59,004 bases of DNA from an uncultured Pseudomonadota bacterium. Lineage in GTDB: Bacteria; Pseudomonadota; Alphaproteobacteria; Rs-D84. Under the pieces are notes generated by a model. That model was not told the DNA's origin. It made no database searches and saw only the letters and a list, made by a program, of their open reading frames with translations. The translations under genes were made by a program, and so were the position numbers. This document shows, piece after piece, positions 34,844 to 59,004 of the stretch (the first letter of the stretch is position 1; each line of letters begins with the position of its first letter). The stretch is taken from contig CAMVAB010000001.1 in NCBI GenBank assembly GCA_947165335.1, positions 1 to 59,004 of the forward strand, written 5' to 3'.

Positions 34844-35026
34844 CGTCAAAGGATGAATAATCGTTTGACTATATCGGGCCCAGAGTTTTCAGACTCCCTC
34901 CTACATTCTCTCTCCTCTGGACTTTGGGCCCAAACACGAGTTTCGGGATGCCCATTTCTTTTTCTCCTTTCCTTCCTTTCAGGGCATCCAGAAAAACACC
35001 ACCCAAACGGGTGGTGTTTCTTTTTG
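34844..35026 (+). ncRNA. Candidate small RNA with CU-rich (anti-SD-like) loops
   Basis: Promoter TTGACA(34809)-17 nt-TACATT(34832). Three stem-loops, two with large loops (CUCCCUCCUAC and CUCCUUUCCUUCC). Terminator aaacaccaccc-aaac-gggtggtgttt followed by a T-run. Confidence 0.35.
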
Positions 35027-35037
35027 AAACAGGACAA

Positions 35038-36060
35038 TTACATCCGCAACAAATATTTTTTCACGAACCAGCCTGAATTCAACTGAATTGCCAAATTTAA
35101 AAAATATTTTTTAAAATTGAAACAATTCGCCCATCTGGTCCAACCAAACAAAGACGCCATCTGTCCGATTGAAAGTTCATTAAAATCTTTGTGTTGAATT
35201 ATGTTTATAATTCTGTTTTTCAATCTTTTTGCTGTTTTTTTTCGCATTAAAATAAAACCATTGAAATGCCGATAACCTATGAAAGGGATTCCATCCAAAG
35301 TTCTTTTCAAATCAGCCTTTGATAAAATCATACTTAAATTTTGTTCAAGAAAGTTTTTAATTTTACTTTTCATGGAATGCAGTTGTTTTTTATCATTGCT
35401 GTACAAACAGAAATCATCGCAATATCGAATATAATCACGACAATGTAAATCATGTTTTACAAATTGATCAAGTTCATTTAAATAAACATTTCCCATCCAC
35501 TGCGAAGTAAGATTACCAATAGGCAAATTAGTATTTCCCCCCACAGAATCTATTATTTCAGATAACACACGCATTATGCGTCTGTCATGAATTTTACGTT
35601 TTACGATATTTTTCATAATTTCATGGTTAATAGATGGGAAAAATTTCCGTATATCACATTGTAAAACATATTTATTGCGCCGTATGAAGTGCATAGTTTT
35701 TTGTGATGCCCCCAAAAGTCCACGTCCAGGGATACAAGCATAAGAATCTTTGATGAAAGATTTTTGCCAAATTGGCCCCAAAACATTTATCAAAGCATGA
35801 TGGACAATATGGTCGGGATACAATGGCAATTTATAAATTATGCGTTGTTTTGGTTCATAAATTTTGAAAGTTTTATAACATGAAGTTTTATATTTACCGG
35901 TTTTAAGACTATTTCTTAATTTTTCTATAAATTCATCTTTGTGTGCCAGAAAATGTTTAACAGATTTCTTTGATTTTTTGCTTTTAATAGCCTTTTTTAC
36001 AGCTAATTCGAAATTTTCTTTTGAAATGAATTTGTCCCACAAATTTTTATAAGTTTTCAT
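35038..36060 (-). CDS. DGR-type reverse transcriptase
   Basis: Motif 4 IGNLTSQ (the DGR signature I/LGxxxSQ), YCDD catalytic box, N-terminus NLWDKFISKENFELAVKKA. The ORF-track start at 36096 is also possible. Confidence 0.9.
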   Translation of the reverse strand: MKTYKNLWDKFISKENFELAVKKAIKSKKSKKSVKHFLAHKDEFIEKLRNSLKTGKYKTSCYKTFKIYEPKQRIIYKLPLYPDHIVHHALINVLGPIWQKSFIKDSYACIPGRGLLGASQKTMHFIRRNKYVLQCDIRKFFPSINHEIMKNIVKRKIHDRRIMRVLSEIIDSVGGNTNLPIGNLTSQWMGNVYLNELDQFVKHDLHCRDYIRYCDDFCLYSNDKKQLHSMKSKIKNFLEQNLSMILSKADLKRTLDGIPFIGYRHFNGFILMRKKTAKRLKNRIINIIQHKDFNELSIGQMASLFGWTRWANCFNFKKYFLNLAIQLNSGWFVKKYLLRM

Positions 36061-36108
36061 TTTTATTCTTCTTTTGTTTTCTTGAAACATCACCACAAAA
36101 AGAACACT

Positions 36109-36435
36109 TTAAGAAAAACTGTAATATCTTTGTACATGAACAACGGTTCCAACGAAAGGTATTTGGTTTGAAAATTCTTTTACCTGTTTAGTTAAAACAC
36201 TGCTGCCTGTAAACAAAACACAAACTTCGCCATCCAATAAGAATTGTAATTGCAAACATTCTGTGCCGTCTTTTTGTTTTGAACGTCTTATTCTGTAATC
36301 GATAACTTTGATTTCGCGGTTAACAATTTCATCAAGACGCTTTTTATTCCCAGGCATAGGCGTTTGATCTTTTGCAAAAACCGAAAATTTTGGACATTCT
36401 GTATTTTTTATTTTTTCAATTTCATCAAATGTCAT
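36109..36435 (-). CDS. 108-aa ORF between TR and RT (candidate non-Avd DGR accessory protein)
   Basis: Intact ORF with a purine-rich stretch (AAAGAGAGAAAA) just upstream of the ATG. Predicted beta-rich and basic (KVIDYRIRRSKQKDG). No resemblance to the helical Avd. Confidence 0.5.
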   Translation of the reverse strand: MTFDEIEKIKNTECPKFSVFAKDQTPMPGNKKRLDEIVNREIKVIDYRIRRSKQKDGTECLQLQFLLDGEVCVLFTGSSVLTKQVKEFSNQIPFVGTVVHVQRYYSFS

Positions 36436-36460
36436 TTTTCTCTCTTTTTTTTTGTATATT

Positions 36461-36513
36461 GGATATCCCGGACGTTCGCCACGATACAGAACAAACTACT
36501 AGTCCAGATATCC
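36461..36513 (-). other. Long hairpin in the TR-downstream spacer of the DGR RNA
   Basis: GGATATCCCGGAC...GTCCAGATATCC form a roughly 12-bp stem with one bulge. Confidence 0.5.
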
Positions 36514-36703
36514 CCTGCGTATTGTGTTTGATCCAAAGAAAAATAATTTTCCCGGACAGGTTACATCGTCCCACCTTTGATGTGAAAAGGTCTTGTCCAA
36601 ACAGATATCGTTGTCGTCGATACCTGAAAAGTGCCAATGCACTTTGTCCTGCAGGTTAGCCAAACTTTGATCCCTTTGATCTCTGTTGTACCTTTCCAAA
36701 GGA

Positions 36704-36838
36704 GCGACCGACCCGAAAAGCCCGACGCGCATAGCTTCGTTGTTCCGGGCGTTGTTGCCACAGTTGTTCGTGCAATTCGAAGCGCACGAGGCGGCGGACC
36801 CGTTGTCGTTGTTGAACACCCAAAGCGACGCCACGGGA
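36704..36838 (-). repeat. DGR template repeat (TR)
   Basis: 135 nt, GC-rich, non-coding (no start codon). 25 adenines in the sense strand, mostly in AAC codons. Matches VR1 and VR2 except at adenines. Confidence 0.92.
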
Positions 36839-37207
36839 AAAACCCCACGCCACACAACAGCCATCGCACAACCGATTACGACGATGCAACCCAGTTCCGT
36901 ATGGCGGAACCATTCCCAAAAGATTCATGGTGAAATCTTTTGATGATGTATTCTTGTGTTCAAACACATCATTAAAAGATGGTTCTCTCCCCCCCCGTGT
37001 GTGTGGGGGGGGAACCTATTGACCTTCTTTTATAAAGCAAAGGTTTTTCAGGCCGAAACAAAGAAGGTCAATTTCGGCCTGTCCCGCTTTACTGCGGGAC
37101 AGGCGATGTGGGGATTCTCCCCACACCCCTGTTTGCGGCATATCGTGTTTCACACGATATGCAAACCGTTCTGCCGTGCCGCGTGTATTCGCCCCGTTTC
37201 GTTCACA

Positions 37208-37675
37208 TCATTGTGCGACCGACCCGAAAAGCCCGACGCGCATAGCTTCGACGTACCGGGCGTAGTAGCCACAGTAGTACGTGCAACTCGAAGCGCACGA
37301 GGCGGCGGACCCGTAGTCGCCGTTGAACACCCAAAGCGACGCCACGGGATGAGTCATTTTACACCAACAATAACGTCCATATTTTTCACTGCCCTGAACA
37401 AGGTTGGTTTCCCCGTTGTTCGTATCAGTCAACTGCGATTCGTAATACCCCATCGATTTACCCTGGCCCGTATTTAAACACGCAGAAATACCGTATATCA
37501 TGCCGTATGGAAACGTCGCATTCCAAAGCCCTGCTGTCGCATCGTATGTCCCCCCAGCAGTCCCGGCAACCGTTGGATCCAATACCACCACCACAGAATT
37601 ATCAACCGCACACATCGTCGTCGCAAATGACGGTATCGTTATCATCATCATCAATGCTGTTATAATCCGTTTCAT
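37208..37675 (-). CDS. DGR variable protein 1 (155-aa secreted Cys-rich protein)
   Basis: Start MKRIITALMMM with an AAGGAAAG RBS and a signal peptide. C-terminus is YCWCK...SLWVFNGDYGSAASCASSCTYYCGYYARYVEAMRVGLFGSVAQ. Confidence 0.85.
   Translation of the reverse strand: MKRIITALMMMITIPSFATTMCAVDNSVVVVLDPTVAGTAGGTYDATAGLWNATFPYGMIYGISACLNTGQGKSMGYYESQLTDTNNGETNLVQGSEKYGRYCWCKMTHPVASLWVFNGDYGSAASCASSCTYYCGYYARYVEAMRVGLFGSVAQ
37215..37349 (-). repeat. DGR variable repeat 1 (VR1)
   Basis: 135 nt colinear with TR. 11 mismatches, all at TR adenines. Confidence 0.92.
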
Positions 37676-37769
37676 CTTTTCTTTCCTTTTGTTTTGCTTC
37701 TTCCCCGTCCGCTTCTGATTCTTCCCTTGGGGGGAATACTCGCGCAGCAAGAGAGGATAGAATCCCCTT

Positions 37770-38240
37770 TTACCACACCGATTCATACATCGCAGACCGG
37801 AACGTTGTATTCGTTTTAACCGCTGTCATACAATCGTTCGTGCAATTCGATGCACATGTTGCTGCATCCGTATAGGTATCTAAAAACATCCAATATGATG
37901 TTATCCCTGTTTCTGTTCCATACGAATATACGGGTTCCATTTTGCACCAACAATATTTGCCTTGGTCTACGGATGATGTGTATAAATTCGTTTGTGGGGT
38001 TGCGTATGTCCCGCTTATTCCATTACATGCTGCTATGCCTGTTACGCGTTTCGTTGTATTATTTCCATAATCAAAATCAACATACCATATTTTGCCATTG
38101 TTCGATGATGTCCCAGTCGTCCCGGCAATATTCTTTTTCAATATGCCAACATAAGTGTTGTTTTTCGCACACACCGTAACAGCATTTGCAATATCAATTC
38201 CAAATAAACATACAAAAAATAATATTAAAAATTTTTTCAT
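37770..38240 (-). CDS. Paralog of the DGR variable proteins with a decayed (non-TR-matching) VR region
   Basis: Signal peptide and YCWCK motif. C-terminus is ...TDAATCASNCTNDCMTAVKTNTTFRSAMYESVW. Only a 15-nt identical core (37836-37850) is shared with TR. Confidence 0.75.
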   Translation of the reverse strand: MKKFLILFFVCLFGIDIANAVTVCAKNNTYVGILKKNIAGTTGTSSNNGKIWYVDFDYGNNTTKRVTGIAACNGISGTYATPQTNLYTSSVDQGKYCWCKMEPVYSYGTETGITSYWMFLDTYTDAATCASNCTNDCMTAVKTNTTFRSAMYESVW

Positions 38241-58245: not shown

Positions 58246-59004
58246 TCATTGTGCGACCGACCCGAAAAGCCCGACGCGCATAGCCTCGCCGCCCCGGGCG
58301 CGGGAGCCACAGTAGCTCGCGCAATTCGAAGCGCACGAGGCGGCGGACCCGCGGTCGCCGTTGAACACCCAAAGCGACGATGATGCATTTTGTTTATTTC
58401 CATTTAATGGTTTATATCCCGTTGCCTTACACCAACAGTATTGGCCCGTGCTATTTTTATTATATGATGCATCGGTAACGTATAATTTTGACCATATCTC
58501 GCCAGTTGCTTCGTCATATGTTATTGTGCCATTACTGTATCTTGTAAATATATCGGCTGCTATTGCGCCTTTTTCCTGACCAGCCAACGATGTATAGTTT
58601 GCTAAGAATTCATATGGATCCATTTGGCCGCCAACGGCAGATTCTACATTAGCTACAAAATACGCCATACCCGCATCCAATGTTGGTTGGCAACTCGCTT
58701 CACCGTATACTGTGCCATAACTGAATTCTGTTTTCCATTCGTTGACCGCTAAATCGCTTAATGCCGCACTTTCCTGGGTACATACACTTGCCCCTTCAGA
58801 ATCAACAGTCCCATCGCCATATGCAGAACAATAATCTGTATTATTATTCCACCCATGTCCGTAAGAATGATTGCCATCTATCGATGCATTTAATGTGGAC
58901 AGGTCAAATCCACGCACACGCCAGCCGCCGAATGTATATCCGGTCTTTGTCATTGTATTTGTTGGTAATGTTATCACACTGTCGTATGTACATGTGTTCG
59001 CTGT
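58246..59004 (-). CDS. DGR variable protein 2 (Flg_new repeats + large Cys-containing domain + VR2; 5' end outside window)
   Basis: The frame stays open to the window edge (TANTCTYDSVITLPTNTMTKTGYTFGGW...). C-terminus is YCWCK...SLWVFNGDRGSAASCASNCASYCGSRARGGEAMRVGLFGSVAQ. Confidence 0.85.
   Translation of the reverse strand, partial: TANTCTYDSVITLPTNTMTKTGYTFGGWRVRGFDLSTLNASIDGNHSYGHGWNNNTDYCSAYGDGTVDSEGASVCTQESAALSDLAVNEWKTEFSYGTVYGEASCQPTLDAGMAYFVANVESAVGGQMDPYEFLANYTSLAGQEKGAIAADIFTRYSNGTITYDEATGEIWSKLYVTDASYNKNSTGQYCWCKATGYKPLNGNKQNASSSLWVFNGDRGSAASCASNCASYCGSRARGGEAMRVGLFGSVAQ
58253..58379 (-). repeat. DGR variable repeat 2 (VR2), remote from TR
   Basis: 127 nt colinear with TR 36704-36830. 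16 mismatches, all at TR adenines. Confidence 0.9.

Follow-up and report, generated by a model that had tools for sequence, protein, structure and literature searches.

The DNA considered here, the window, is a stretch of 59,004 nucleotides (nt) of contig CAMVAB010000001.1 (assembly GCA_947165335.1), numbered on the forward strand. Its minus strand carries, between 35.0 and 37.8 kb, a complete and genuine diversity-generating retroelement (DGR) in which every testable defining feature is present. In minus-strand order, the locus comprises a target gene with its variable repeat (VR1), the template repeat (TR), a spacer of 268 nt, an open reading frame (ORF) of 108 amino acids (aa), here called X, and a DGR-class reverse transcriptase (RT). 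X is one of a large and unnamed family of small, predicted beta-barrel proteins that is almost always tied to the RTs of DGRs without Avd, and the locus represents an active-looking DGR of this Avd-less class. The positions of its features are as follows.

35038–36060, minus strand: DGR-class RT; the ATG at 36060 gives 340 aa and an in-frame GTG at 36096 would give 352 aa
36109–36435, minus strand: X, predicted oligonucleotide/oligosaccharide-binding-like (OB-like) DGR accessory protein; intact ORF of 108 aa, 12.6 kDa, isoelectric point (pI) 8.8
36436–36703, minus strand: structured spacer RNA (Sp-like) reaching from the TR to X; 268 nt, fold z = -2.5 against shuffled sequences
36704–36838, minus strand: TR; 135 nt, 25 adenines, AAC-rich, matching VR1 and VR2
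36839–37171, minus strand: non-coding interval between VR1 and the TR, the site of avd in canonical cassettes; many inverted repeats
37172–37214, minus strand: flank of 43 nt directly 3' of VR1, with the same sequence as the VR2 flank
37208–37786, minus strand: target gene 1 (ORF as listed), coding for a small, Cys-rich protein of secreted type
37215–37349, minus strand: VR1; 11 mismatches to the TR over 135 nt, 11 of 11 at TR adenines
58246–58977, minus strand: target gene 2; 243 aa as listed, with a C-terminal domain homologous to target 1
58253–58379, minus strand: VR2, remote, 21 kb away; 127 nt aligned to the TR, 16 of 16 mismatches at TR adenines

Homology of the RT with the RTs of its relatives begins at residue 13 of the ORF that opens with GTG, i.e. 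at the ATG at 36060, and the gap between X and this ATG measures 48 nt. The protein matches RVT_1 (E = 9e-13) and phrog_1423 (E = 8e-101) and contains the motifs IGNLTSQ and YCDD. Its best match in the PDB, over the full length, is chain 8ub7_A (E = 3e-45), which we take to be the bRT of the BPP-1 DGR ribonucleoprotein (RNP). The RTs associated with X share 35–67% identity among themselves; that of the window is 45–49% identical to three phage-type X-linked RTs, 35–39% to others and 31% to bRT (BPP-1 Brt).

VR1 constitutes the last codons, at the 3' end, of the small target ORF, and both VRs end 4 nt ahead of the stop codon. The 43-nt flank shared by VR1 and VR2 is a candidate target-recognition element of the IMH-associated kind (IMH standing for initiation of mutagenic homing). 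Each of the identical flanks is followed by a hairpin, and the hairpins at VR1 and VR2 are different.

Avd is a four-helix-bundle pentamer, and its gene usually lies ahead of the TR. A Pfam search of the 61 ORFs of 85–175 aa in the six frames of the window revealed no bAvd (PF22296) and no Avd-like family, while the Avd of BPP-1 (Bbp7), included as a positive control, matched PF22296 with an E value of 7e-36. Nor was Avd matched by any of 143 ORFs from 15 diverse related loci, all of them located no more than 3 kb from X. In this small sample, which covers the window and the 15 loci to a distance of 3 kb around X, X and Avd are mutually exclusive. The locus falls outside the canonical avd-TR-RT cassettes, which are Architecture B in Wu et al. 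2018. An initial annotation of this DNA had reported an intact 108-aa ORF between the spacer and the RT and the absence of an Avd-like ORF; the former is found at 36109–36435 on the minus strand with the sequence quoted there, and the latter agrees with the searches described above, in the window as well as around X in the related loci. Its description of the architecture as non-canonical is correct relative to BPP-1 and not in the sense of a one-off, since the locus is a member of a large unnamed class.

Fold and family of X

The X protein of the window has no match in Pfam, NCBIfam, PHROGs or the sequences of the PDB; the wider family touches phrog_19665, to which no function is assigned in that database. 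An AlphaFold2 model built with 41 homologs (pLDDT 89.7, pTM 0.74) displays short N-terminal helices followed by the succession b1-b2-b3-helix-b4-b5, which is the order of the OB-fold, and no helical bundle. The secondary structure assigned by DSSP to the model comprises strands at residues 41–51, 59–67, 70–76, 94–101 and 104–107 and a helix at 79–87. The predicted fold is thus an OB-like five-stranded barrel whose helix is placed between strands 3 and 4, and the initial annotation, which had guessed at a beta-rich or OB-like protein from the pattern of hydrophobic residues and had named a four-helix bundle as the contrary outcome, is borne out by this confident model.

A Foldseek search of the PDB with the model retrieved weak matches, nearly exclusively to OB domains, namely those of RuvBL2 (domain II), RPA, human SSB and HIN-200, and also DUF2500. 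Among the viral predicted structures of BFVD, the best matches are two RT-domain proteins from phages, one of 324 aa (E = 1.8e-6, TM-score 0.71) and one of 602 aa (E = 8.2e-6, TM-score 0.62), both probably RT-X fusions. Phage entries labelled 'ssDNA binding protein' were found as well (E = 4e-3 and 1e-2, TM-score 0.51–0.54). From the predicted fold we infer that X binds nucleic acids. The motifs conserved in the family are FSDFA, GxK, LQF, FTGSxVLxxQ, PF and YY(T/S)F.

The models bear directly on the idea that X is a highly diverged Avd. The similar size and mild basicity of the window protein (108 aa, pI 8.8) would agree with such an origin, as would the figure legends of Paul et al. 2015, which name an 'Avd' ORF in ANMV-1 and Avd-like ORFs in Nanoarchaeota. 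However, X is modelled with confidence as a beta-rich protein that has one main helix, as opposed to the helical-bundle pentamer of Avd, and none of 104 diverse X members matches bAvd or another Avd-like Pfam family, whereas the Avd of BPP-1 does so with an E value of 7e-36. We give this origin practically no credence.

Close homologs of X form 62 clusters with 49–92% identity, and their length is exactly 108 aa in 51 of these. Their hosts are uncultured gut and rumen Alphaproteobacteria, many of them labelled Candidatus Enterousia. A profile search extended the family to 750 clusters (at 50% identity) with E values of 1e-3 or below, 285 of them at 1e-10 or below, mostly with lengths of 95–105 aa. 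The 678 clusters obtained at 90% identity contain no Pfam domain, and their members are unnamed or 'hypothetical' with the exception of one evident mislabel. One further protein, P0130 (233 aa), consists of two tandem X domains after an acidic N-terminal tail.

A DGR-type RT adjoins X in 67 of the 69 genomic loci that were fetched, mostly at a distance of -13 to +31 nt. Of the remaining two, L069 is a contig end, and L016 has retained X and the spacer RNA and lost the RT. In 38 of the 69, a TR/VR pair was found whose mismatches fall mostly, or exclusively, at adenines. In IMG/VR, scanned with an alignment of 40 X members, 353 stretches encode a relative of X, and in 77 of the best 80 loci the RT gene lies directly upstream on the same strand; in two of the other three, L104 and L105, an Mtd-like target directly precedes X and the RT is absent, and the third has no DGR parts in its surroundings. 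The RT adjoins X in 144 of the 149 sampled genomic and viral loci, and in all six distant members that were inspected individually. Four of the distant X genes, from prophages or phages, lie directly behind the RT gene and overlap it, in DGRs whose targets are of Mtd type and whose TR/VR pairs are A-specific. The archaeal virus ANMV-1 and a Methanosarcinales virus likewise encode an X homolog behind the RT. In the phage loci, the ORF that follows X is small and not conserved and has no Avd match, and no second accessory gene was seen there.

RT proteins that carry X as a C-terminal fusion make up 16 clusters (proteins P0333–P0343, P0352, P0388, P0443, P0078 and P0132). One such fusion is encoded in the isolate genome of a cultured member of the Bacteroidota, Labilibaculum euxinus (L076, 5001–6245), with an A-specific TR/VR pair just upstream. 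In the AlphaFold2 model of this protein (pLDDT 93.9, pTM 0.77), the order of strands and helix in the X part is unchanged; the model supports retention of the fold only and not a docking mode. A conserved small ORF (MKGNS..., 185 aa or a 107-aa version) occurs directly behind the RT in the RT clade related to the fusions. It is situated between RT and X at L158 (3917–4474) and L159 (3944–4501), occurs without X at L157 (4050–4373), and may be a further DGR-linked protein.

Homologs of X are thus found almost only in DGR loci, which is the outcome of the co-occurrence check that the initial annotation had proposed. That annotation had left undecided whether X is an accessory factor or a passenger; the accessory role is favoured, and the reading of X as an unrelated passenger or phage gene hitch-hiking beside the RT is rejected because of the adjacency to the RT across loci and the natural RT-X fusions. 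Hitch-hiking would be in keeping with the four loci that have X and no detected RT, and with the absence of an annotated function for X anywhere. Against it stand the 144 of 149 loci with an adjoining RT, which include chromosomal DGRs, prophages and archaeal viruses with various targets and both gene orders, while the other flanking genes are unrelated. A passenger gene is therefore very improbable, and X is very probably a functional component of the DGR.

The commonest order in the family is target-TR-spacer-RT-X with a spacer of about 100–135 nt. The clade of the window displays the order target-TR-spacer-X-RT, and in 34 of 39 loci the spacer measures 212–291 nt. Two loci are rearranged: in L054, X and the RT are followed by a TR-spacer-VR unit further downstream, and in L015, X is convergent to the spacer and RT. 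X therefore stays with the RT even where the RNA module moves. A rearranged cassette in which X remains adjacent, as in the convergent L015, would also suit a regulator or modulator of the DGR, e.g. a protein that limits RT activity or couples the RT to the state of the phage or host, without being a catalytic cofactor. A linkage to the RT that is tight yet not absolute and the variable pI of the family point in the same direction. Nevertheless, a core subunit agrees better with the fusion to the RT in 16 clusters and with a conservation that extends from archaeal viruses to Alphaproteobacteria, and a purely regulatory X seems improbable to us.

The OB-like topology allows for another role, in which X is an SSB-like binder of single-stranded DNA (ssDNA) that acts after reverse transcription by coating or protecting the mutagenised cDNA and helping it to anneal or integrate at the VR, and not by aiding the RT to engage the RNA; the synthesis of cDNA would in that case need neither Avd nor X. 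The Foldseek matches to RPA, human SSB, HIN-200 and the phage 'ssDNA binding protein' entries agree with this role, and fusion at the C-terminus of the RT would put a DNA-binding module near the exiting product. Nothing in these data, however, tells an ssDNA role apart from binding of RNA or the RT. Moreover, X has no sequence match to the SSB families in Pfam, NCBIfam or the PDB, and its strict one-to-one coupling to the RT, with overlapping start and stop codons, is more typical of a stoichiometric enzyme subunit. We regard this role as the main rival of an RT-partner X, and as rather unlikely.

Two further observations concern the distribution of X. Two separate X-type DGR loci are present in each of two metagenome-assembled genomes (MAGs), L060 and L062 in JAZNBN01 and L057 and L063 in JAZSNY01. 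A locus in a Candidatus Omnitrophica MAG (L068, 3994–5285; 39% identity) has the phage-type order RT-X and is the sole non-alphaproteobacterial match in the close-family scan; no TR/VR pair was detected in the fetched 10 kb.

Spacer RNA and the proposed role of X

The region between the TR and X (36436–36703) has no matching family in Rfam. It had been described in the initial annotation as a long, structured spacer of about 270 nt with a hairpin of roughly 12 bp at 36461–36513. Its length of 268 nt, its better folding relative to shuffled sequences and the hairpin, a 12-bp stem with a 3-bp distal stem and compensatory changes, are all confirmed. As for what is non-canonical in it, the length is unusual, as is the presence of X behind it, but a structured spacer past the TR is in itself canonical (about 144 nt in BPP-1). 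The elements of the RNA are as follows.

36663–36703, minus strand: P0, stem-loop of variable length directly past the TR (CUCCUUUGG...CAAAGGG)
36514–36655, minus strand: spacer RNA core; long-range helix P1 (36655–36651 with 36518–36514) enclosing P2–P5
36645–36628, 36626–36602, 36591–36573 and 36572–36558, minus strand: core hairpins P2, P3, P4 and P5, respectively
36461–36513, minus strand: 3' hairpin (P6 of 12 bp and P7 of 3 bp); arms 36513–36502/36473–36461 and 36496–36494/36480–36478

An alignment of the spacers of 31 loci reveals nearly invariant blocks and seven helices with 41 pairs, which are 95.4% paired and 23 of which show changes on both sides. None of 500 shuffles attained these values, and sliding the partners by 1–3 columns reduced the pairing to 27–47%. 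The best-supported helix is the 3' hairpin, with compensatory changes in 9 of the 12 pairs of P6 and in all three pairs of P7, scored in 30 distinct related sequences and far above chance. The nearly invariant blocks of the core are GUUUxGCUAACCUG and AAGGCGGGG. A covariance model of the spacer, R1, identified 35 further loci outside the training set with scores of 100–216 bits, and the RNA is present in more than 60 Enterousia-like loci. An X-binding RNA element common to the window clade and the phage-type X-DGRs was looked for, and R1 found none that is significant in the latter.

The alignment is poor at P0, which is weakly supported for this reason. In single-sequence folds of the 31 loci, this region forms in most cases a stem with a conserved 5' arm, GCUCCU. 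In BPP-1 the corresponding place is taken by the Avd-binding stem-loop, an analogy of position alone.

No convincing terminator was seen on the minus strand between the TR, the spacer, X and the RT, and a single transcript over all four is plausible. Just past the stop codon of the RT, a palindromic hairpin of 11 bp at 34994–35019 is probably a bidirectional terminator; three weak Rfam matches to leaders or small RNAs were obtained there.

We propose that X takes the place of Avd as the partner subunit of the RT in an Avd-independent particle, an assignment that we consider fairly probable. It is the most economical reading because the RT is homologous, the RNA is structured and conserved, Avd is missing, and X is coupled or fused to the RT. 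One minus-strand transcript would hold the TR, the 268-nt structured spacer, X and the RT, and the two proteins, once translated, would form a complex. X together with the RT would recognise the folded spacer RNA, for which the stem-loop right past the TR and the multi-helix core are candidates, and this recognition would position the RNA for self-primed, adenine-mutagenic cDNA synthesis. The cDNA would then replace the adjacent VR1 and, 21 kb off, VR2, both of which are marked by the identical 43-nt flank and a hairpin after it.

Several points weigh against this assignment. Binding of X to the RT and to RNA (or cDNA), and a need for X in retrohoming, are all things that we infer. The matches of X in the PDB are weak, with Foldseek probabilities of 0.3–0.97, E values of 0.07–0.9 and TM-scores of at most 0.45, and the family, with a mean pI of 7.2–8.2 and a standard deviation of about 1.4, is near neutral and not consistently basic. 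X occurs without a detectable RT in L016, L104, L105 and L122, and at L157 an RT of the clade related to the fusions has no adjoining X. In the phage-type, archaeal-virus, Omnitrophica and Labilibaculum loci, R1 found nothing significant; its best score there was 13.5 bits (E = 0.03), between the TR and RT of L072. R1 being silent outside the clade of the window, the sequence-level motif of the spacer is therefore clade-specific. Finally, X may be identical with one of the unnamed potential accessory genes PAG1–4 of Wu et al. 2018.

A broader proposal follows the same lines, and we put it forward tentatively. X may define a second, Avd-independent type of DGR RNP, in which an OB-fold subunit, as a monomer or an oligomer and in some cases fused to the RT, assumes the RNA-positioning role of the Avd pentamer, and this type may be widespread.

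Target genes and neighbouring features

The likely start of target gene 1 is the methionine at 37675 (MKRIITALMMM...), downstream of the start of the listed ORF. Sequence searches of Pfam, NCBIfam and the PDB gave no match for the protein, and its fold is not recognised by sequence; on this evidence it is no recognisable target of the C-type-lectin or Ig kind. A paralog with 35% identity adjoins it at 37770–38240 on the minus strand. The C-terminus of the paralog is VR-like but differs from the TR at non-adenine sites, and because of these differences it is not regarded as currently diversified.

The interval between VR1 and the TR, taken up to the target ORF (36839–37207, 369 nt), is non-coding and contains nine inverted repeats, including an 11-bp hairpin at 37138–37162 and a C8/G8 hairpin at 36988–37013. 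ORFs within the interval match no Pfam family. Among the 15 related loci that were scanned, one ORF near an X-type DGR has an RNase H match (E = 2e-48).

Comparison with known systems

A search of the literature for an OB-like, an approximately 100-aa beta-rich or any other new DGR accessory protein returned only Avd, HRDC, MSL, CH1 and PAG1–4. X resembles HRDC, MSL and CH1 in that it is a small, cassette-encoded protein present in a subset of DGRs. HRDC is helical. X, with about 100 aa and a beta-rich fold, differs from HRDC and MSL and has no HRDC or MutS match in Pfam. In the classification of Wu et al. 2018, the accessory classes are Avd, HRDC, MSL (MutS-like) and CH1, with PAG1–4 as tentative additions; MSL proteins have 112–283 aa, and CH1 proteins have 160–169 aa, are acidic (pI 4.7) and are confined to Avd-less DGRs. 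This description sets CH1 apart from X (108 aa, pI 8.8).

With SSB, RPA, HIN-200 and domain II of RuvBL, X shares a predicted barrel of five strands with a helix between strands 3 and 4. It differs from these solved OB-fold domains in the lack of sequence similarity, in conserved motifs of its own and in a weak superposition (TM-score at most 0.45).

A true X homolog is found in ANMV-1. This protein (AJP62065.1; 98 aa, pI 9.1) is annotated as 'hypothetical' in GenBank, is encoded 2 nt behind the RT, and is 44–45% identical to the two bacterial family members that were used as queries. The ANMV-1 cassette has the order target-TR-RT-X and a spacer of about 108 nt, unlike the window. A 64-aa ORF between the target and the RT of ANMV-1 was also considered as a candidate; it overlaps the TR and is probably spurious. 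The legend of Figure 1b of Paul et al. 2015 mentions an 'Avd' ORF in ANMV-1 without saying which or why, and the legend of their Figure 3 defines Avd-like ORFs of Nanoarchaeota by pI and mass only. If the ORF behind the RT was meant, the 'Avd' ORF of that legend is X.

DGRs without Avd make up 26% of those catalogued by Wu et al. 2018, who inferred an Avd-independent homing mechanism for Lineage 3, which has Architecture A (target-TR-RT). The Lineage 3 DGRs and the LMMB DGR of a crAss-like phage share with the window a target-TR-RT core without avd; the phage-type X-DGRs follow this order exactly and add X at its end. The descriptions of Lineage 3 and LMMB list no accessory gene, whereas the window has a conserved small gene with the RT, and in the clade of the window X lies between the spacer and the RT, unlike the Lineage 3 description. 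What is new here is a large unnamed family linked to Avd-less DGR RTs and, in one clade, a spacer RNA supported by covariation, rather than a single locus. X provides a concrete candidate for the Avd-independent mechanism that had only been inferred. If the proposal is true, X-type RNPs would explain a substantial share of the DGRs classed as without an accessory gene and would occur widely among phages, archaeal viruses and gut Alphaproteobacteria. The mechanistic and structural work and the DGR mutagenesis tools that we found in the literature are all based on the bRT-Avd-RNA particle. RT and X joined in one chain by nature would be attractive compact parts for engineered targeted hypermutation, the spacer RNA structure defined by covariation serves as a candidate partner of X for testing, and DGR annotation pipelines, which now report X cassettes as without an accessory gene, could take up the X family.

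The best-described system, BPP-1 (mtd-avd-TR-Sp-brt), corresponds to the window in the adenine-specific transfer from TR to VR, in the location of the VR at the 3' end of the target, in the DGR-class RT, and in the conserved flank and hairpin behind the VR. A structured, non-coding spacer RNA past the TR is common to both, and in BPP-1 it is essential and wraps bRT-Avd. There, the RNA around the TR envelops bRT, overlies the Avd barrel and positions the duplex for self-primed cDNA synthesis, and elements of the spacer, including an Avd-binding stem-loop just past the TR, position Avd and bRT (Handa et al. preprint). By contrast, the window has no avd, its interval between VR and TR consists of non-coding hairpins, and it has two targets, one of them remote. 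Its spacer measures 268 nt as compared with about 144 nt from the TR to brt in BPP-1, and it is followed by X in the window and by the RT in BPP-1. The ORF behind brt, bbp4, is not X.

X and Avd themselves are alike in being small, encoded in the cassette on the strand of the RT and presumably stoichiometric, and the window copy of X is mildly basic; the pI of Avd is 9.5 ± 0.7 (Wu et al. 2018). They have no sequence relationship, and the OB-like beta structure predicted for X differs from the four-helix-bundle pentamer of Avd. Their genes also occupy different places in the cassette: avd lies ahead of the TR as a rule, and X is mostly encoded behind the RT or as a C-terminal fusion with it.

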